Part shown: in pieces, positions 1,261 through 13,134 of the stretch | How the letters are laid out: each line of letters opens with the position of its first letter | Position numbering within the stretch: the stretch's first letter is position 1 | Origin: a virus | Direction: 5' to 3' (one strand) | DNA length: 13,134 bases | Virus record (IMG/VR): IMGVR_UViG_3300045988_132438 | Coordinates: 1 to 13,134 of that record | The notes under the pieces: generated by a model | Database searches by the model: none | What the model was told of the DNA's origin: nothing | What the model saw: the letters and a program-made list of their open reading frames with translations, nothing else | Program-made: the position numbers and the translations under genes

Positions 1261-3384
1261 ATGATAGTAGCAGGATATCCGGTGGTCTATTTTAAAAACT
1301 ATGATTATATGCATTTATTTGATGGCAATTTTATACGGAGATCCAACGCAGGTCATTACCTTGGAGTATATGAAAAAATCATAACCGTAGACACAGAAAC
1401 CTTTGTATATCTTAACAAAAGCATTGGCTTTGTGACAGACTGGACAATCACCATAGAGAATGACTGCTGCATCTATGGTAATCATGTATCAGATCTGATA
1501 GACACGATAGACAGGATCTGTACCACATTACATGCTGATGACAGCCACCTTGTAAGATTTTTTGTTCACAATTTCCCTTATGATTATGTATTTTTAAGAA
1601 ATCATTTTTTCCAAAAATGGGGAAATCCGGACAAATCATTAGCTGCTAAAACTCATAAGTACATCTTTATGAAATGGACAGGACAGGGTATTGAGTTCCG
1701 GGACAGTCTTATCTTGACACAGAGATCATTAGAAAAGCTTTGTAAAGATATGGGCACCACTGAGAAAGCTGTCGGAACATGGGACTATAAGAAGTTTCGA
1801 ACGCCAGCAAGCCCACGTACGGCAAAAGAAATAGCATATGTCTGTACGGATACGATAAGCTTATGCAAAGCCCTACGCAAATACATAGATCAGAGAGGAT
1901 TTAACGTGGCGAACTGTCCGCTAACCAATACTGGTTTTATCCGAACCAATGCCCGCAGAAGATCAAGAAAAGACAAGAAATGGCGCAAGCAATTTGAGCA
2001 AATGGCATTAACACTTGAACAGTATGACCAGATGCTTGACTGCTATCATGGGGGGTATACCCATGCAAACAGATACTATATTAATCAATTGATAAAAGAA
2101 CCTGTTGAGTGCTATGACTTTGCAAGTTCTTATATTGCCTGGATGTGCTATTGCAAATTTCCTATGACGAACTTTTGTTATACAAATAGTATAACATTAA
2201 AAGACATTATGGACTTGAAAGAAGATTATGCTTTTTCCGGTTATATAAGATTAAAGAATCTGAGGTTGAAAAAAGACTGCCCTATGCCACCTCTTGCTTT
2301 TTCAAAAGCAAAAGTTTGTGTTTTCCCGGAAGCAAAAAGCAAAAAAGAACAGTTCCATGATAATTTGGACAATGGAAAGATTGTAAATGCAGATCTTGTC
2401 ATATATCCATTTACTGATCCGGATTTAGAAGTCATCCTGTCAAGTTATGATTATGAATGGGCGGACGTGTCAAAGGTCATGAGAGCGACAAAGGACTACT
2501 TGCCGGAGTGGTTCACAGGCTATTTGATGGAATTATTTTTTAAAAAATGCACCCTTAAAGGTTTGGATGAAGCAAACTATATGATCTCAAAAGGTGAGTT
2601 AAACGGCATGTACGGAATGACAGTACAGCGGATCATACAGATTATTTGTACTGAGTTGATGGAATCCGGAGAGTGGGAAGCAAAAGAACCAGAGGACAGG
2701 GAAAAAGAACTTGAAAAGTTCTATAAAAATAAAAACAGCTTCATGCCCTACCAGTGGGGAGTATTTATTACAGCTTATGCACAGGCTTATCTTTTCCGGT
2801 TGGGAGCCTGCTGCCGGAGGTGGCTATACTCTGATACGGACTCTGTTAAAGGCACAGACTGGGATCATGATAAACTGGATGCATTTAATCAGTCAATCGT
2901 TGATATGTCAAAAAAAAGAAACATCGGAGTAGTTGAGTATAAGGGCAAAACATTCCGTCTGGGTATCGCTGAGTTTGACGGAATATACAGTGAGTTTATA
3001 ACGATGGGTAGTAAGCGTTATTGCTACCGCTTAAAAAAAGATGCATCCTTGCATCTGACGGTCGCAGGAGTGCCAAAAGAGGGAATTTACTGTTTGGATG
3101 ATGACATAGCAAATTTCAGAAAAGGATTTATTTTCAGAAACGATTTGACATTCCGCAGGAACTACCGCAGGGTGAATGATTGGCAGGATCCTCATTGGAA
3201 AATGAAAACAGAGTATCTTTTTCATGACGGAATCAATGAACTGACCATTGACGGATGCAGGATTGAGTATGGCTGTGCTATCCGGTTGACCGATACAGAG
3301 TATGAATTGGATCATACGATTCCGTATGATAAAGAAACAGGATTGCCGTTGCCGTTTGAAATGGAATATACGGTATATGAATAG
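1261..3384 (+). CDS. Protein-primed family-B DNA polymerase (phi29 gp2-like), 707 aa
   Basis: RBS GGGAGGAG sits upstream of ATG 1261. Motifs read from the translation: ExoI D44-T-E46 (VDTET); ExoII N104-x3-D108 (HNFPYDYVF); ExoIII Y193-x3-D197 (YVCTD). Motif A is D286 (YDFASSY), motif B is K444-x3-N448-x2-Y451-G452 (KGELNGMYG), motif C is Y523-S-D-T-D-S528, and KxY is K585-R-Y587. About 70 aa separate motifs B and C, consistent with a TPR2-type insertion. Confidence 0.95.
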   Translation: MIVAGYPVVYFKNYDYMHLFDGNFIRRSNAGHYLGVYEKIITVDTETFVYLNKSIGFVTDWTITIENDCCIYGNHVSDLIDTIDRICTTLHADDSHLVRFFVHNFPYDYVFLRNHFFQKWGNPDKSLAAKTHKYIFMKWTGQGIEFRDSLILTQRSLEKLCKDMGTTEKAVGTWDYKKFRTPASPRTAKEIAYVCTDTISLCKALRKYIDQRGFNVANCPLTNTGFIRTNARRRSRKDKKWRKQFEQMALTLEQYDQMLDCYHGGYTHANRYYINQLIKEPVECYDFASSYIAWMCYCKFPMTNFCYTNSITLKDIMDLKEDYAFSGYIRLKNLRLKKDCPMPPLAFSKAKVCVFPEAKSKKEQFHDNLDNGKIVNADLVIYPFTDPDLEVILSSYDYEWADVSKVMRATKDYLPEWFTGYLMELFFKKCTLKGLDEANYMISKGELNGMYGMTVQRIIQIICTELMESGEWEAKEPEDREKELEKFYKNKNSFMPYQWGVFITAYAQAYLFRLGACCRRWLYSDTDSVKGTDWDHDKLDAFNQSIVDMSKKRNIGVVEYKGKTFRLGIAEFDGIYSEFITMGSKRYCYRLKKDASLHLTVAGVPKEGIYCLDDDIANFRKGFIFRNDLTFRRNYRRVNDWQDPHWKMKTEYLFHDGINELTIDGCRIEYGCAIRLTDTEYELDHTIPYDKETGLPLPFEMEYTVYE

Positions 3385-3870: not shown

Positions 3871-4170
3871 ATGTTAAAATCAAACGTAAAAATCACTTGC
3901 AAACCTTATAACGGTAGTTCAAAAACAAAAGCCTTTGTTGATCTGACTCTGGATGATACACTCATAATTAAAGGACTTACACTGCTTGAGGGGAAAAACG
4001 GGCTTTTCCTGTCATTCCCAAGTACAAAAGGAAAAGACGGAAAGTATTATGATTCCGTTTACTCTCTGGATAAAGAGTGGTTAAAACTTTTGCAGGATGC
4101 CTGCATCAAAAAATACAATGAATGCAACCAGACTTCACAGCCTGTATCCTCCGGGGGTGGATTCCGGTAA
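3871..4170 (+). CDS. SpoVG-family (nucleic-acid-binding) protein, 99 aa
   Basis: RBS AAAAGGAG. The segment KAFVDLTLDDTLIIKGLTLLEGKNGLFLSFPSTKGKDGKYYDSVYSLDKEWLKLLQDACIKKY aligns by eye with B. subtilis SpoVG as I recall it ([62 protein letters not shown]). Confidence 0.65.
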   Translation: MLKSNVKITCKPYNGSSKTKAFVDLTLDDTLIIKGLTLLEGKNGLFLSFPSTKGKDGKYYDSVYSLDKEWLKLLQDACIKKYNECNQTSQPVSSGGGFR

Positions 4171-5219
4171 TGAATATCTATGATAGAAATGGTTGGCTGG
4201 ATGTTCCAAGGATTGTCCAGCTTGCCGATAAAAATAAAATTAACTTTATCTTTATTATTGGGGCAAGACGAACCGGGAAAACGTATGGTATCTTCCAGCA
4301 CTTTATCAATGATGTCTTTTCGAAAAATGAGAAGATCATTTACATGAGACGCACAAAAGAGCAACTGACAAAAGTATTTCTTCCGGAGTTTGACCCCTGG
4401 CTGGACATAAACAAAAATATGAACAGGTTTTTTCACTTCGAAAAACCCAGAGGAGAATATGGTCGTATTAAGATTGTGGAGCAAACAGAGGAAGAGGAAG
4501 TATATAGAGGTGAGGCTTTTTGTCTAACTTCGATGCATAACAACCGTGGTTTCTCTGGATCTGATTTTTCTGAGGGAATTTATGATGAATTCATCCCAGA
4601 GAAGATAGCAAAAGCAATCAGTGGGGAAGATGATGCGTTTTTGAATGCTGTTGAAACAATCTCAGCAAACAGGGAATTGCAAGGAAAGAAACCGTTCCGC
4701 TGGTGGTTGGCTTCCAACTCCAATACGCTGGATAATCCGATTGTACAAGCTTTTGGTTTGCTTCCAATCCTTGAGCGAATGAAAAAAAATAAGCAGGAGT
4801 TTTCATTGCTAAAAGAAAGAGGAATCATTTTAGTTTTAATTAATGACTCTCCGATTTCAGAAAAAAAGAAAGACACTGCATTGTATCGTGCTTTATCGGG
4901 TAATACGGACTTTGCAAAGATGGCGCTTTCAAATGAGTTTGCATATGATGATGTATCGGCTATCCGATCAGAAGATATACGACAATACAAGCTTATTTGT
5001 GTCATTGGAAAAGTAGCAATTTATGAGCATAAATCAAAAGCCCATTTGTATGTGTCGGATCATATCTCTGGGTCTTGTAAGGATGTATTTGAAGACAACC
5101 AACATGGAAAAGACCAATTCAGATGCTTTTATAGTTGGATTGATAGCTATCGTCTGACAAATAGGATAAGTTATCAGAATATTTCAGTAAAATTTTATAT
5201 TGACAAATTATTCAAATAG
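4170..5219 (+). CDS. DNA packaging (encapsidation) ATPase, phi29 gp16-like, 349 aa
   Basis: Start ATG 4170 overlaps the upstream stop (TAATG). The track ORF's earlier start at 4122 lies inside the SpoVG-like gene. Walker A GARRTGKT is at 4260-4283. NFIFIIGARRTGKTYG...KIIYMRRTKEQLTKV parallels phi29 gp16 LNFVIGARGIGKSYA...QFIYVRRYKPELAKV. The Walker B-like IYDEFIPEK matches VFDEFIREK. Confidence 0.9.
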   Translation: MNIYDRNGWLDVPRIVQLADKNKINFIFIIGARRTGKTYGIFQHFINDVFSKNEKIIYMRRTKEQLTKVFLPEFDPWLDINKNMNRFFHFEKPRGEYGRIKIVEQTEEEEVYRGEAFCLTSMHNNRGFSGSDFSEGIYDEFIPEKIAKAISGEDDAFLNAVETISANRELQGKKPFRWWLASNSNTLDNPIVQAFGLLPILERMKKNKQEFSLLKERGIILVLINDSPISEKKKDTALYRALSGNTDFAKMALSNEFAYDDVSAIRSEDIRQYKLICVIGKVAIYEHKSKAHLYVSDHISGSCKDVFEDNQHGKDQFRCFYSWIDSYRLTNRISYQNISVKFYIDKLFK

Positions 5220-5228
5220 ACTTATATT
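5200..5228 (+). promoter_or_regulatory. Near-consensus promoter within the last codons of the ATPase gene
   Basis: TTGACA at 5200-5205, a 17-nt spacer at 5206-5222, TATATT at 5223-5228. The predicted TSS is about A5235/G5236. Confidence 0.6.
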
Positions 5229-5234
5229 TTAATT

Positions 5235-5313
5235 AGGTCAACGTGGCTACATCGACCGCCGGAAGCGGATGCCGTGGGGTGATTACCCGGAAGCGTTGAC
5301 CTATTTTAATTTT
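5235..5313 (+). ncRNA. Candidate structured small RNA (three-way junction); packaging RNA or late-leader attenuator
   Basis: A perfect 10-bp helix TAGGTCAACG (5234-5243) / CGTTGACCTA (5294-5303) encloses two hairpins. The first is an interrupted stem at 5245-5273 with a CGGAA loop. The second is GGGT 5277-5280 / ACCC 5285-5288 with a GATT loop. TTTTAATTTT (5304-5313) follows. The predicted promoter places the TSS at the first bases of the outer helix. No ORF with an RBS covers the element. Confidence 0.4.
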
Positions 5314-5337
5314 ACTTCCGGCAGAAAAGGAGAAAAA

Positions 5338-5649
5338 ATGAAAGTAGATCAGATTTTAGAACTTGGAAAACTTGGATTTACAAAAAATGAGATCATGGGG
5401 ATTCTGAACGCTCAGAGTATGTCCGGACTTGGACAGATTACAACTCCGGAACAGGGTACTACGCAGCAGACTACTCCTGGACAGGTTCCAACTCCGGGAC
5501 AGGATGCAACAAACACAGCGTTATTGACAGCAATCAATACTTTGACTGCTACCTTGCAGGCTGGGAACCTGTCAGCATCCGGAAAAGCTGGGTCAGCACC
5601 ACGTACCTCTGACAACGTAGCGGAAGATCTGATGAAACTCATGAATTAA
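5338..5649 (+). CDS. Scaffolding protein candidate, 103 aa
   Basis: RBS AAAAGGAG lies before ATG 5338. The track's earlier start at 5269 has no RBS and runs through the structured element. It is a small protein immediately upstream of the major capsid gene (phi29 gp7 position) with a low-complexity T/P/Q/G linker. Confidence 0.5.
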   Translation: MKVDQILELGKLGFTKNEIMGILNAQSMSGLGQITTPEQGTTQQTTPGQVPTPGQDATNTALLTAINTLTATLQAGNLSASGKAGSAPRTSDNVAEDLMKLMN

Positions 5650-5662
5650 GGAGGGTAAATAA

Positions 5663-6859
5663 ATGGCAAACAGTTTAGTAGTCCAGGATGCCTATTTAAT
5701 CATCAATGATTTATACAAAATGGCTACCGGACGCGAAAATATCAAAGCAGTAGACACAAGTTCCTTTGTGTCGGTTGGTGAAACTATGTTGCGGACAGGT
5801 GTAGAGCCAACACTGAAAGCACTCAGTCAGTGGTGCGGAAGAACATACTTTGAAATGGAAAAATACAGATCCGGTGTATTCCGCTCAATCATTGAGAATA
5901 ACGAACGCTGGGGGGCTATCACACGTGAGATTATTTCACTTCCGTTGGATGCAGAGGCTTCGCAGGATTGGAATACAGACTTGAATGAAAATCAGCTTGC
6001 TGATGGTCAGTCGGTCGACATGTACAAGATCAATGCCCCGAAAGTAGTGGAGTTGAAATTCTACGGTAGCAAAGTCTTACAGTCTCATATCACACGATTC
6101 CGTGATCAGCTGGCATTAGCTTTTTCTAATGAAACTGAGTTTCTTATGTTTGTAAGTAGCTATATGACCGCTTACTATAATGATATTGAATCCAGAAATG
6201 AAGCAAAGCGCAGACTGACAGTGCTCAACTTCATGGCAGGCATTTCCTATCTTGGAACAAATGAAGTAGATCTTGTAAAAGAGTACAATACAGCCTATGG
6301 AACAAAACTGACAAGAAAGCAGCTTTTAAGCCCGGAGTACCACAGAGATTTCATGGCTTTTGTGGTTGCAAGAATCAAAAAAGATTCCAAAAAGATGCAG
6401 GATCGCACGACAAAGTATCACATGAATCTGACTGGAAAAGATATCCTGCGCTTTACACGTCCGGAGAACCAGAAACTGCTTATGTATACCGATTTCTGGA
6501 TTGATTCCGAAACACAGGTATTTCCGACAGTCTTTAGTGATGAACAGTTAAAGATTGCCGACAAAGAACTTGTAAACGGCTGGCAGGAGTTTGACAGCCC
6601 AGCCATCAACATTAAACCTAACATCATTGATGCGACCGGTGTTTCCAAAACAGCTACGACAGCGGTAAATCTACCATATGTACTTGGTATTTTATATGAT
6701 CGTAGAGCAATGGGAGTGAACAATCAGTGGATGTACTCAGCAGCTACCCCATTCAACGCAGCAGGTGGCTATTACAATATCTTTGATCACTACCGGTTCA
6801 ACGCTTGGAATAATTTCACACACAACGCAGTCCTTTACGTACTGGGGGAGGGGGCATAA
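5663..6859 (+). CDS. Major capsid protein, phi29 gp8-like, 398 aa
   Basis: RBS AAGGAGGG. The C-terminal region ILYDRRAMGVNNQWMYSAATPFNAAGGYYNIFDHYRFNAWNNFTHNAVLYVLGEG aligns by eye with phi29 gp8 [54 protein letters not shown]. It ends there, with no C-terminal Ig-like domain. Confidence 0.85.
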   Translation: MANSLVVQDAYLIINDLYKMATGRENIKAVDTSSFVSVGETMLRTGVEPTLKALSQWCGRTYFEMEKYRSGVFRSIIENNERWGAITREIISLPLDAEASQDWNTDLNENQLADGQSVDMYKINAPKVVELKFYGSKVLQSHITRFRDQLALAFSNETEFLMFVSSYMTAYYNDIESRNEAKRRLTVLNFMAGISYLGTNEVDLVKEYNTAYGTKLTRKQLLSPEYHRDFMAFVVARIKKDSKKMQDRTTKYHMNLTGKDILRFTRPENQKLLMYTDFWIDSETQVFPTVFSDEQLKIADKELVNGWQEFDSPAINIKPNIIDATGVSKTATTAVNLPYVLGILYDRRAMGVNNQWMYSAATPFNAAGGYYNIFDHYRFNAWNNFTHNAVLYVLGEGA

Positions 6860-8066: not shown

Positions 8067-9406
8067 CGGAAATCATCTTATATCATTTTTCCAAAAGAAA
8101 AAACAGCACCAAAAGACCAACGGGACAGGGCACTACTGTGCCCTGTCTTTTAAAATCGAACACCACTTTTCAGAATCCAGTGTTTAAATTAAAATTATCA
8201 TTAGATAATGCATTGCAATACAACTATTTACAATGGGCTGACCATTACTATTTTATCAATTCGACGATGTCATTAAATAATGACATGGTTGAGATCTCAG
8301 CGAGTGAGGATGTGTTAGCTACCTACCGGACAGAGATCAGCAACTATACATGCTTTATTGAGCGTTCTGCTAAGCAGAATACGCTTGCAAATGATTCCAT
8401 GTATATCCCTACAAATGACTGGGTAAGTCAATCTACGATAGTTGGACAGCCAATAAATACGTTTGTGAATGGGTATGCACCAAACTATTTACTGCGCACT
8501 GTATCAGTTGAGGGAGTAAACACCTATTATATAAGAGGTAAGCAATTAAAAGAGTTATGCAACTTTATGTACACATATGGATCTATTCCAGATGTAATGG
8601 AAACAGCATTGACGCGTTTACTTTTTAATCCGTTTCAGTATATTCTTGATTTAAAATGGTTACCTTTTATGGTTGAAAAATTTGTAAATGCATTAGATAC
8701 TGTAAAGCTTGGCTACTGGGATAGCAACAAAAATGCCTATCTGATAGATGATGCATCTTGTACTTTTTCATATGATTTAAGCCTTGGGAATCCCTTATAT
8801 GCTGATACAGATTTCAGATTTTACAATCCTGCTTTTTCAAAGTATACTGTAAAGCTTCCATTTGTGGGGATTATTCCTATCAATCCAGCAAAGACCCATA
8901 AGGGGCAGTTAAAAGCTACTTATAACTTTGATGCTGTCTCCGGCATGGCAGACGTTTGGGTAACTTCCGGATCTGATGAATATGCACATTTTCAATGTCA
9001 GCTTGCCGTTCCGGTTCAAATTGGATATGCTACGGCAAACATTGGTCAGCTTACTACCAGCTTGATAGACGTAGGAACAAGCCTTGCTTCCGGTAACCCA
9101 ATAGGGGCTATCACAAATACGTTGGGGGCATTCCAGAGCGTAACCTCTCCGGAGCCTAACATGGTCGGAACTATTGGAAATATCAGTTCCATTTTGAACA
9201 ACATGGAAGCAAACAGCATCTGCTATGCCTGCACAAGCATAGGTCCAGATGGAGCAAGTGAGGGTTTTGTAGATGGCACTGTACGCTCTATATCTGGACT
9301 GACAGGCTTTGTAAAGTGTAGGAATGCATCTATACAGATTGCAGGATTTGAGGGGGATCAAGAGCAGGTGAATGAGTACTTAAACAACGGATTTTACTTT
9401 GAATAG
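8063..9406 (+). CDS. Tail knob / distal tail tube protein, phi29 gp9-like, 447 aa
   Basis: ATGA overlap with the endolysin stop. The N-terminal YNYLQWADHYYFINSTMSLNNDMVEISASEDVLATY resembles gp9 [41 protein letters not shown]. A Gly/Ala/Ser/Thr-rich hydrophobic loop (GQLTTSLIDVGTSLASGNPIGAITNTLGAFQS) sits at the position of the gp9 membrane-active loop. The C-terminal FVKCRNASIQIAGFEGDQEQVNEYLNNGFYFE resembles gp9 [32 protein letters not shown]. Confidence 0.7.
   Translation: MTEIILYHFSKRKNSTKRPTGQGTTVPCLLKSNTTFQNPVFKLKLSLDNALQYNYLQWADHYYFINSTMSLNNDMVEISASEDVLATYRTEISNYTCFIERSAKQNTLANDSMYIPTNDWVSQSTIVGQPINTFVNGYAPNYLLRTVSVEGVNTYYIRGKQLKELCNFMYTYGSIPDVMETALTRLLFNPFQYILDLKWLPFMVEKFVNALDTVKLGYWDSNKNAYLIDDASCTFSYDLSLGNPLYADTDFRFYNPAFSKYTVKLPFVGIIPINPAKTHKGQLKATYNFDAVSGMADVWVTSGSDEYAHFQCQLAVPVQIGYATANIGQLTTSLIDVGTSLASGNPIGAITNTLGAFQSVTSPEPNMVGTIGNISSILNNMEANSICYACTSIGPDGASEGFVDGTVRSISGLTGFVKCRNASIQIAGFEGDQEQVNEYLNNGFYFE
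8124..8151 (+). terminator. Terminator-like stem-loop inside the tail-knob CDS (possible attenuator)
   Basis: GACAGGGCAC (8124-8133), loop TACT, GTGCCCTGTC (8138-8147). This is a perfect 10-bp stem with 7 G:C pairs, followed by TTTT (8148-8151). It lies 61 nt into the gene. Confidence 0.4.
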
Positions 9407-9421
9407 AAAGAGGTGATAAAC

Positions 9422-10342
9422 ATGTGGACGCCGGTTAATTTTGACAAGATTAATATTTGCACAAATTACTTCCAACCGTCCGGAATTAAAGTCGACAGCT
9501 TATATACTGATACGTTTGATCGTATGCTTTATGAGCGTGTTTGTTCAATTTTAGACATTAGCTATAATGGAACTATTGACATTGATTACTTTAAATATTG
9601 TTTGCTTTTCGGTGGCTATATTTGCATAACAAAGACAGATCTTTATGGTCTGATTGCACAATACCCAATTTTGACAGGCTACAATATTTATTTCAAACCA
9701 ACCACAGCTACTATACACACGTATTCAAGCAATGCAGAGATTGACATGGAGGACATGGAGATCGGAAAAGACTGTTCTGTCATCTATCTCAGACCAACTT
9801 TCTGCGGCATTGGGGATATCATCGGTTTTTACAGCTATAAGCTGGCACTGGTAGCAAGTGCGTTTGATATGAATGTATTTAATTCAAAACTTGCTTTTCT
9901 GATAGCCGCTAAAAATAAAGCCGCGGCTCAGACCTTGAAAAAAATCTATGACAGTATTCAATCCGGTAATCCGGTTGAGGCTTTTGATGTATCAATAAAA
10001 AGCGAGGACAGACAAGGAGCCAAACAGGATGCTTGGGAGAGTTTCAACAAAGACTTGAAGCAGAACTTCATTGCACCGGAGTTGATTGAGGTATTTGAGA
10101 AACTTCTTGATCAGTTTGATACAGAGGTTGGTATTCCATCTGTCGGGTCTGATAAAAAAGAACGACTGAATGTGCTTGAAACAAGCAAAAATGATGCAGA
10201 ATCAGTAACACGGCTCACTACTTGGCTTGAGACTATAAAAGCAGGAGTTGACATGACAAACAGATTATATCCAGAAATGAACTTGTCAATCAAGATCAGA
10301 AGCTATGAAACTGCGGGGGTGAAAACTTATGGGTCTTTATAA
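9422..10342 (+). CDS. Portal / upper collar connector protein, phi29 gp10-like, 306 aa
   Basis: RBS AAAGAGGTG lies before ATG 9422. The track start at 9413 is the GTG inside that RBS. FDTEVGIPSVGSDKKERLNVLETSKNDAES parallels gp10 [29 protein letters not shown]. The central region AAKNKAAAQTLKKIYDSIQSGNPVEAF parallels [24 protein letters not shown]. The size matches gp10 (309 aa). Confidence 0.85.
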   Translation: MWTPVNFDKINICTNYFQPSGIKVDSLYTDTFDRMLYERVCSILDISYNGTIDIDYFKYCLLFGGYICITKTDLYGLIAQYPILTGYNIYFKPTTATIHTYSSNAEIDMEDMEIGKDCSVIYLRPTFCGIGDIIGFYSYKLALVASAFDMNVFNSKLAFLIAAKNKAAAQTLKKIYDSIQSGNPVEAFDVSIKSEDRQGAKQDAWESFNKDLKQNFIAPELIEVFEKLLDQFDTEVGIPSVGSDKKERLNVLETSKNDAESVTRLTTWLETIKAGVDMTNRLYPEMNLSIKIRSYETAGVKTYGSL

Positions 10343-12289: not shown

Positions 12290-12301
12290 ATATAAAATAT
12301 G

Positions 12302-12335
12302 ATAGCCCAGTGGATGCTGGGCTATTTTTTATTTT
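12302..12335. terminator. Bidirectional rho-independent terminator between the convergent late (+) and right-early (-) operons
   Basis: ATAGCCCAG (12302-12310), loop TGGATG, CTGGGCTAT (12317-12325), then TTTTTATTTT on the plus strand. A-rich sequence upstream gives a U-rich tail on the minus strand. Confidence 0.8.
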
Positions 12336-12637
12336 GTATCTTTCAAAAGTTTTCTGAGTAACTTGATTACACCCCAGTTTGTTGAGGCACTGTAAGTTCT
12401 TACACCTTTTTGAGGGTTCATAATAAATTCCCTTTTTGATGCTTCATAATAAAGAACCCTCCAGTCTTTAAAGTCTGTCATGCTTATTTCAACAAAACCA
12501 AAATAGTAGTTAAAGTGTTGAATAATCAAAGTATCACAATCTTTGCTAAGTCTACATATGAAGCCTTGCTTTTTGAGATCAAGAGCAAGCTGTTTAAGGT
12601 TCATTGTATCTTTGTTGTAGTATGGATTCACTCTCAT
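12329..12637 (-). CDS. Hypothetical right-end early protein, 102 aa, basic
   Basis: Track ORF with the strong RBS on the minus strand (TAGGAGGTATATAAC then ATG). It is the last gene of the three-gene operon driven by the right ITR promoter. I recognised no motif. Confidence 0.7.
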   Translation of the reverse strand: MRVNPYYNKDTMNLKQLALDLKKQGFICRLSKDCDTLIIQHFNYYFGFVEISMTDFKDWRVLYYEASKREFIMNPQKGVRTYSASTNWGVIKLLRKLLKDTK

Positions 12638-12838: not shown

Positions 12839-13029
12839 CTTTTCACCTCATATTTTAAACCTATGATTTTCATTTCACTTTCAAGAGTGCATAACTCATT
12901 CCAGAGTTCTCTTTCTATTGACTTGAAAGACTCACAGCTAGGATAACTACGAACGTCTTCATACGCTTTTCCCCATTTTCCTAATAAGCACTCATGTGCT
13001 AACTCATATAATCTTTTTTCTTTCATCAT
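12835..13029 (-). CDS. Hypothetical right-end early protein, 64 aa (MMKEKRLYELAHE...)
   Basis: The start is the ATG at ITR position 106 (plus coordinate 13029), or the next ATG, downstream of the ITR AGGAGGG. The track's longer version (start 13086) begins upstream of the predicted TSS and is unlikely. Confidence 0.65.
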   Translation of the reverse strand: MMKEKRLYELAHECLLGKWGKAYEDVRSYPSCESFKSIERELWNELCTLESEMKIIGLKYEVKR

Positions 13030-13134
13030 ATTCCCTCCTGCCAGTTGGCTGTGCTGTATTGATTTGTTGAGTTTATTATAGTCCAAATGAACTAATATGT
13101 CAACAGGATAAGTGACAGACTTTGTGTGATATTG
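13025..13134. repeat. Right inverted terminal repeat (ITR-R), 110 bp
   Basis: Exact reverse complement of 1-110. Confidence 0.97.
13075..13103 (-). promoter_or_regulatory. Consensus early promoter inside ITR-R, directed inward (mirror of 32-60)
   Basis: On the minus strand: TTGACA (13103-13098), 17 nt, TATAAT (13080-13075). The predicted TSS is about 13068. Confidence 0.8.

Follow-up and report, generated by a model that had tools for sequence, protein, structure and literature searches.

A conserved three-way-junction RNA of small phi29-like gut phages is a candidate miniature packaging RNA

What does the short non-coding gap between the DNA-packaging ATPase gene and the scaffold-like gene of a small gut phage encode? 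The window analysed here (the whole stretch of 13,134 nucleotides (nt) of IMG/VR record IMGVR_UViG_3300045988_132438) is a complete linear 13,134-base-pair (bp) genome of a phi29-like gut phage. An initial annotation, made from its letters alone, had read in this gap a promoter-driven three-way-junction RNA, either a packaging RNA (pRNA) or an attenuator of the late operon. Comparison with related phages now favours the pRNA-like alternative, on the grounds of the existence of an RNA family, the order of its parts and the occurrence of stand-alone copies; the attenuator survives for the window in the form of partial termination. With a probability of roughly 0.55, and arguing from comparison and from analogy with phi29, we propose that the element is a miniature pRNA-like packaging RNA. 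In the window its gene would stand at the head of the scaffold/capsid operon, fused to it by way of a leaky terminator made of the closing helix (P1) and the U-run that follows it.

We searched IMG/VR with the ATPase protein and retrieved 80 related loci. The clades whose ATPase identity is 92-98% and 65-68% keep the intergenic element behind this gene, and its helix P1 is fully rewritten there yet still paired (GGTCAACG/CGTTGACC, GGTCAGAG/CTCTGACC, GGGAAAAC/GTTTTCCC, GGAAGCG/CGCTTCC). In an alignment of 30 distinct sequences (A1), 98.9% of the cells were paired and double changes were seen in 13 of 24 pairs. With a covariance model built from the ATPase-retrieved element sequences, the element was also recognised, with scores of 52-61 bits, in a fourth clade, where ATPase identity is 40%. 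In alignment A2, with 42 distinct sequences from four clades, compensatory changes occur in 20 of 27 pairs, compared with 3-5 in controls in which the partner was slid; pairing reaches 90% of the cells, but 34-47% in these controls, where the shift is by 1-3 columns. G.U pairs are found solely when the plus strand is read, and the element is therefore an RNA of the plus strand. Diverged members occur in about 15 lineages of small phi29-like phages, as a unit of 60-80 nt. In these 15 lineages all four helices are complementary, with the exception of single mismatches in two short P1 helices, and the helix sequences are unrelated; the minimum free energy (MFE) fold shows the junction in most of them.

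The three-way-junction fold is established by this comparison of sequences, not by that of the window alone. Indeed, single-sequence statistics by themselves give no support for the element. The fold of the window has a z-score of -1.69, which is not above chance, and its MFE structure favours an alternative pairing with a downstream segment, CUUCCGGC, over the junction. Perfect 10-bp inverted repeats with 3-60 nt between their arms occur 1.1 times per resampled genome, that is, at chance level (the only other one in the window with a short spacer, at 8124-8147 with a 4-nt loop, lies in an open reading frame (ORF) for a 489-residue tail protein). The element is locally GC-rich, as had been noted, with 0.60 against 0.39 for the genome. 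Searches with Rfam at E<10, of the whole window and of positions 5190-5345, returned noise only (Ref1C at 19.9 bits and preQ1-II at 18 bits, far below the gathering scores), and ARAGORN found no tRNA and no tmRNA in the window.

All coordinates of the initial annotation proved correct when re-checked, and most of its parts take their place in the comparative structure, described here from 5′ to 3′ on the plus strand. The promoter consists of a -35 box TTGACA (5200-5205), a 17-nt spacer and a -10 box TATATT (5223-5228), with a predicted start at A5235/G5236. It matches the consensus at 11 of 12 positions and is the third best in the genome, where only three sites reach 11-12 of 12, the other two being 12/12 sites in the terminal repeats. 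The promoter, the 17-nt spacer and a fixed distance to P1 are kept across all clades, the first paired base of P1 being the seventh base past the -10 box in every one. This strong sigma-70 promoter abuts P1, which places the predicted 5′ end level with the helix. Within P1 lies the perfect 10-bp helix reported earlier (5234-5243 with 5294-5303); its 5′ strand UAGGUCAACG(U) (5234-5244) pairs with (G)CGUUGACCUA (5293-5303), with compensatory changes in 10 of 11 pairs and 95% of cells paired.

The first arm begins with P2a, in which GGC (5245-5247) pairs with GCC (5271-5273); the pairs appear as GC, AU, CG and GU variants, and the three pairs of the window are formed in 42 of 42 sequences. An 8-nt bulge on the 5′ side, UACAUCGA (5248-5255), separates P2a from P2b, where CCGC (5256-5259) pairs with GCGG (5265-5268), with 100% pairing and CG to UA switches at two pairs. 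P2b is capped by loop L2, CGGAA (5260-5264), which is near-invariant in the family (CAGAA in clade 4, UCGAA in the cultured phage AD70P2, see below), and is followed by the two nucleotides AU (5269-5270). After the joining strand J2/3, GU (5274-5275; 0-5 nt in the family), comes the second arm, the P3 hairpin (5276-5288), in which GGG (5276-5278) and CCC (5286-5288) close loop L3, GUGAUUA (5279-5285); this is the hairpin with a GAUU-containing loop of the initial annotation. P3 is formed by all 15 lineages and covaries in clade 4 (GGGA..ACCC to GGAG..CUCC). The strand J3/1, GGAA (5289-5292), has the family consensus NNAA followed by a purine, and both A's of the AA are invariant in clades 1-4. 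Directly 3′ of P1 lies the U-rich tract UUUUAAUUUU (5304-5313), a probable leaky intrinsic terminator. ATG 5269 was ruled out as the start codon of an ORF because homologues have in-frame stop codons.

The internal pairings of the first arm are where the earlier picture had to be revised. Of the three helices proposed there, the outer two are kept, as GGC/GCC and CCGC/GCGG, but the middle one, AUC/GAU (5251-5253 with 5268-5270), is not conserved. AUC 5251-5253 covaries instead with GAU (5281-5283) in L3. The three core pairs between bulge and L3 are kept in 42 of 42 sequences, as AUC:GAU, ACC:GGU or GCC:GGC, with AU/GC and UA/CG switches, one of which occurs within clade 4 (in L171). Eleven lineage-specific complements were found in total: besides these three, CUC:GAG, UCCAC:GUGGA, GAGG:CCUC, GGUC:GACC, GUUC:GAAC and GGACA:UGUCC in a fifth clade, and UCC:GGA and GCTA:TAGC. 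When each bulge was matched with its own L3, the summed complement was 47, compared with 27.3 ± 2.7 after permutation, and none of 100,000 permutations reached 47. The partners suggested at first, the CGGAA and GAUU loops or the repeats of CCGGAAGCG, do not covary. A pairing of CGGAA with GAUU was rejected, as was the middle helix of the first arm, each being either not complementary or not conserved. The repeats themselves are present (5259-5267 and 5287-5295), together with CTTCCGGC at 5315-5322; the second copy is clade-specific.

How far does this RNA extend beyond the window? Wider pattern scans of IMG/VR and of metagenomes returned clades 1-4 only, and 39 of 42 metagenome matches were human-gut contigs of 1-15 kilobases (kb), mostly 12-14 kb. 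A DNA-pattern scan of 185,579 bacterial and archaeal species genomes gave five matches, which equals the chance expectation, and none of them passes the covariance model. The genomes searched carry a single copy of the RNA. Seven further genomes (clade 5, L237-L243) were reached only through homologues of the capsid protein, with 53-56% identity; their polymerase, ATPase and connector are just 24-33% identical to those of the window. In all seven, two boxes 17 nt apart, the first TTGACA-like and the second TATAAT-like (TG-extended in the genomes that were scanned), come right after the ATPase stop codon and are followed by a diverged RNA with P1 at the predicted start, P2a, a 5′ bulge of 7-13 nt, P2b, a P3 hairpin and a bulge:L3 complement that is different in each. 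L2 is CGGAA in six of the seven. Across the family, P2b has 4-6 bp and the 5′ bulge 7-13 nt, and promoters are predicted in all lineages. One member belongs to a cultured phage, Amedibacillus phage AD70P2 (OP172638; 12.3 kb), where it lies between ATPase and scaffold-like genes (L244, 5849-5908), behind TTGACA, 16 nt and TATATT, with UCC:GGA as its bulge:loop complement; nothing is annotated there in the record. Another, with a P1 of 14 bp, is found in the uncultured faecal phage L246 (MT835998; 12893-12973, minus strand).

The position of the RNA differs between lineages. It stands between the ATPase and scaffold genes in clades 1-3 and AD70P2, and between the ATPase gene and a holin or small gene in L243, L238 and L242. 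In L237, L240, L241 and probably L239 it follows the ATPase gene at the junction of convergent operons. In clade 4 it is at the genome end, ahead of the scaffold operon and far from the ATPase gene, and in L246 it is near the genome end, ahead of a small unidentified gene. The proximity to the ATPase gene that had been stressed is thus common (the 3′ end of that gene adjoins the RNA in clades 1-3, AD70P2 and all seven clade-5 genomes) but not universal, as clade 4 shows. In L237, L240 and L241 the unit comprises a predicted promoter, the three-way junction and a terminator hairpin, and no gene comes next on that strand. Our terminator scan flags that of L240 only (a 15-bp stem and T8); those of L237 and L241 were read by eye. 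As promoter and terminator belong to the unit itself and no gene lies downstream, we read it in these three genomes as a stand-alone RNA gene and not only a leader. More generally, what stays constant between lineages is a promoter, the RNA and some signal for termination, which argues for an RNA gene.

We then considered how the transcript of the window might end. At least two U's stand directly 3′ of P1 in clades 1-4. P1 has 9-14 bp in members without a separate terminator and 4-6 bp in those with one (p=0.009; AD70P2 is an exception), a trend that fits P1 and the U-run doing the job of a terminator in the window. The P1 of the window, with GG/CC near its base, is followed by UAUUUUAAUUUU, and it closes a junction of 50 nt; the terminator scan does not flag it because this ‘loop' exceeds 8 nt. 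P1 and the U-run probably terminate part of the window transcripts. Public assemblies were uninformative on transcript ends, the contigs with the scaffold protein being mostly near-full-length genome contigs.

Read-through transcripts would contain an additional segment. The linker segment CUUCCGGC (5315-5322), which is available only in such transcripts, is complementary to GCCGGAAG (5258-5265) in the first arm. Linker:element duplexes predicted by RNAduplex were stronger than expected from 500 dinucleotide shuffles (p=0.024 for the window and 0.000-0.018 for clades 2 and 3). In clade 3 the linker pairing covaries (GUCACGGG:CCCGUGAC, GUCAUGGG:CCCAUGAC, GCCACGG:CCGUGGC), and it recurs independently in L246, where the linker, AUCCGUCCGU, complements ACGGACGGA in the P2b/L2 of the same RNA. 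The alternative cis pairing foreseen in the initial annotation thus appears to be a selected feature of clades 1-3 and L246, with the linker as the partner, but it is absent from clade 4.

Under the packaging reading, the bulge of one RNA would pair with the P3 loop of the next, as it does in phi29, and the RNAs would form a ring on the prohead. The CGGAA arm may contact the prohead, and P1 may present the gp16-type ATPase. In the window, terminated transcripts would give an RNA of ~70-78 nt and read-through transcripts the scaffold/capsid mRNA; in the latter, the linker could invade its complement in the first arm, unfolding the RNA and freeing the ribosome-binding site. Whether the same holds for the entire radiation of 12-14-kb phi29-like human-gut Firmicutes phages, which would then use a minimal packaging RNA of 60-80 nt, homologous or convergent to phi29 pRNA, we regard as close to an even question.

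Several observations weigh against a packaging role. The Rfam model of phage pRNA, RF00044, which the initial annotation had named as a probe, does not match the element at E<10, when phi29 itself scores 145 bits as a positive control. At 60-80 nt the RNA has about half the minimal length of a pRNA (those of the Bacillus Salasmaviridae have 117-174 nt), its P1 has about 5-14 bp compared with about 25 bp in the A helix of phi29 and is without the conserved A-helix bulges, and J3/1 has 3-6 nt where phi29 pRNA has none. The gp10 connector of phi29 binds pRNA through a basic N-terminal arm (residues 1-14; MARKRSNTYRSINEIQRQKRNRW), whereas the N-terminus of the connector is not basic in any of the clades (MWTPVNFDKINICTNYF...). 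The bulge:loop pairing could also be a tertiary contact within one molecule, and not between protomers, since the two arms are similar in height (P2a 3-5 bp, P3 3-4 bp); by the rules for three-way junctions, short J1/2 and J2/3 strands and a longer J3/1 would make P3 point away from P2. Finally, in the window and in about half of the lineages overall, the RNA serves at the same time as 5′ leader to a late gene, and the selected linker pairing is the mark of a cis-acting switch.

The best surviving alternative, which we consider unlikely and only slightly ahead of the next, is that of a small RNA that acts in trans outside packaging. It might regulate mRNAs of the phage or of the host, divert a host protein or a defence system as a decoy, or bind RNA polymerase or the replication machinery. 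The stand-alone units with promoter and terminator point to a trans-acting product and are silent on its role; a connector lacking the RNA-binding arm and the want of any sequence or covariance-model likeness to pRNA are what such an RNA would predict, and the near-invariant CGGAA loop would suit any conserved protein partner. In topology, however, every part has its counterpart in pRNA, the covarying pair of bulge and loop among them, and the RNA is restricted to phages with gp16-type motors, usually beside the ATPase gene. We noticed no extended antisense target, and the conserved single-stranded bases are too few for targeting of mRNAs.

Somewhat less probable still is a purely cis-acting leader or attenuator, in which the junction and the U-run would terminate or silence transcription, and a phage protein, a ligand or the linker pairing would switch the scaffold/capsid (or holin) genes. 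The U-run after P1 and the linker complementarity of clades 1-3 are as expected of such a device, and the RNA does lie in 5′ untranslated regions, that of the scaffold gene for clades 1-4 and AD70P2, those of holin or small genes for L243, L238, L242 and L246. In the window, moreover, the predicted probability that the Shine-Dalgarno sequence of the scaffold-like gene is unpaired is 0.06 with the three-way junction formed, since GGAG and the A-run are then engaged by the U-run and CUUCC, and 0.94 when the 3′ strand of P1 is blocked and the alternative pairing is free to form. In L237, where the RNA is located behind the ATPase gene, nothing but a plain hairpin (165-201; GGGTAGG..CCTACCC) and TATTTTATTT stands ahead of the scaffold gene, directly before the ribosome-binding site. 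But in L237, L240 and L241 the RNA itself has nothing downstream to regulate, the gene that follows varies from lineage to lineage, and the motif is absent from bacterial genomes. A conserved switch by Shine-Dalgarno sequestration was rejected, since the effect predicted for the window does not recur consistently in the other clades, of which clade 4 is without the alternative pairing.

It is improbable that the element is a mere structure of transcript ends that has no specific partner and serves to stabilise the late mRNA at its 5′ end and/or to terminate the early/ATPase operon upstream. In all clades P1 sits right at the predicted 5′ end, as expected for protection from 5′ exonucleases, transcripts from upstream would meet P1 and the U-run in clades 1-3, and the P1/U-tract part of the covariance model also matches ordinary terminators; for these purposes, however, a simple hairpin would suffice, and the junction, the near-invariant loop and the bulge:loop pair are kept across lineages with 24-33% protein identity. 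A metabolite riboswitch was rejected in view of the stand-alone copies and of the absence of the motif from the 185,579 species genomes.

A different stretch was seen in two cultured Clostridium innocuum phages, CI130P2 (L245, ~4790-4900) and CI55P1 (L248, ~4762-4872). Between their DNA polymerase and ATPase genes, behind a TGnTATAAT box, lie ~115 nt with ~98% conservation between diverging flanks, and one of the changes preserves pairing as U.G. The stretch folds into a long helix of ~23 bp closing a branched core, in which, by eye, a 12-nt 5′ bulge (..CACCA) is complementary to a hairpin loop (CUGGUAA). It is possible that this is a pRNA-like RNA of canonical size; RF00044 gave no match to this longer candidate.

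The gene content of the window is that of a phi29-type phage. The genome has perfect 110-bp inverted terminal repeats (1-110 and 13025-13134), each with an inward-pointing 12/12 sigma-70 promoter (32-60 on the plus strand, 13103-13075 on the minus strand); a stretch of ~140 nt separates the left one from the first long ORF (204). The DNA polymerase (1261-3384; Pfam DNA_pol_B_2) is of the protein-primed type B, and it is followed by the gp16-type packaging ATPase (4122-5219, plus strand; Pfam Podovirus_Gp16 at 5.4e-17 over profile positions 14-300 of 331, PHROG terminase at 1.5e-28), the final codons of which overlap the -35 box of the RNA promoter. Downstream on the plus strand are the scaffold-like gene (5338-5649), with Shine-Dalgarno sequence AAAGGAG at 5326-5332 and ATG 5338 (5326-5340), the phi29-type major capsid protein (5663-6859; Pfam Phi29_MCP at 4.5e-15) and the gp10-type connector (9413-10342; Pfam Phage_connector at 3.4e-13), which is 23% identical to phi29 gp10. 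The closest database record is an unannotated human-faecal phage with 84% identity. Just upstream of the ATPase ORF, and overlapping it, lies a SpoVG-like ORF (3871-4170; Pfam PF04026 at 2.5e-17), and SpoVG-like genes are also upstream of the ATPase gene in L238, L239, L241 and L243. SpoVG-like protein as a fixed partner was not supported, since the equivalent ORF in clade 4 (L157) has no SpoVG match. We also noted that the scaffold-like gene contains, at 5430-5510, imperfect direct repeats with spacings of 30 and 18 nt, which encode a T/P/G/Q-rich repeat. A bidirectional terminator-like hairpin at 12301-12326 (11 bp, with T-runs on both strands) separates the long plus-strand operon from the short minus-strand genes of the right end, and the right arm also holds two adjacent 23-nt direct repeats at 12405-12453, CCTTTTTGAGGGTTCATAATAAA and CCTTTTTGATGCTTCATAATAAA, which are 91% identical.

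To our knowledge, pRNA is the only RNA that is an essential part of a viral DNA-packaging motor, and we know of no case in nearly 40 years that was documented outside the Bacillus relatives of phi29. If the packaging reading is correct, RNA-dependent motors would be widespread and not peculiar to Bacillus phages, and the ring-forming, prohead-binding core of pRNA would be reducible to about 50 nt plus a docking helix of 5-14 bp. Such an RNA would offer a natural minimal pRNA for the study of motor mechanics and for RNA nanotechnology, and the window would provide an example of a structural RNA gene fused to a late-operon leader. Should the packaging role fail, the family would still be a new, abundant, phage-specific class of structured RNA in the human gut virome, absent from Rfam; targeted searches of the literature found no prior report for Guelinviridae-like phages. 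Since a covariation-supported, promoter-driven family with the plan of pRNA exists in about 15 lineages, one of them cultured (AD70P2), the need of other gp16-type phages for an RNA adaptor is directly testable.

Three known systems invite comparison. Like purine-type riboswitch aptamers, the RNA has about 70 nt, a P1-closed junction and two arms of similar height with a distal base-paired contact, and it may stand in a 5′ untranslated region with an alternative pairing to a downstream segment, as in several clades. Unlike in these aptamers, the distal contact varies by simple covariation and has no conserved loop-loop motif, the junction strands are short, no Rfam riboswitch matches, and the stand-alone copies regulate nothing. 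With the promoter-proximal, cis-acting put antiterminator RNAs of HK022 and with leader attenuators, the element shares that it is a structured RNA of ~70 nt placed just downstream of a strong phage promoter and ahead of a long late operon, with a U-run after the closing helix. A put RNA, however, is built of two stem-loops and has neither a junction nor a bulge and loop that covary, and the unit described here exists also without any downstream gene.

The closest likeness is to the pRNA of phi29, known only from the Bacillus relatives of that phage (PMC11476376; PMC5066667). There, the C-terminal domain of gp16 cannot bind the connector and pRNA fills this role (PMC11476376, a 2024 review); protomers join into the ring by pairing of CE bulge with D loop, contact with the ATPase is made by the A helices, and a hairpin loop binds the connector (PMC5066667). 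phi29 pRNA is a motor part of proheads, and the new family is known here from its sequences. The helix equivalent to the C helix, P2a, has 3-5 bp compared with 9-10 bp in phi29; the gene adjoins that of the ATPase or heads a late operon and is not at the left genome end, where the phi29 pRNA gene lies; and the RNA often doubles as an mRNA leader. The two RNAs nevertheless agree in their setting and in their plan. Both belong to phages with a protein-primed type-B polymerase, a gp16 ATPase, a gp10 connector and a phi29-type capsid. Like pRNA, the new RNA has a promoter of its own, here a predicted one, and in both a helix between the two ends of the molecule closes a three-way junction. In the RF00044 alignment the order of phi29 is A helix, C helix, a 9-nt 5′ bulge ending in AACC, a 4-bp E helix with a 6-nt loop, UUU, and the D hairpin with loop UGGUU. 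In the same order, the first arm of the new RNA is a helix, a 5′-side bulge, a short helix and a small loop, and the second is a short hairpin, with 3-5 bulge bases that differ between phages and match the hairpin loop by Watson-Crick complementarity. In clade 3 the bulge and loop are AACC and GGUU, as in phi29 itself.

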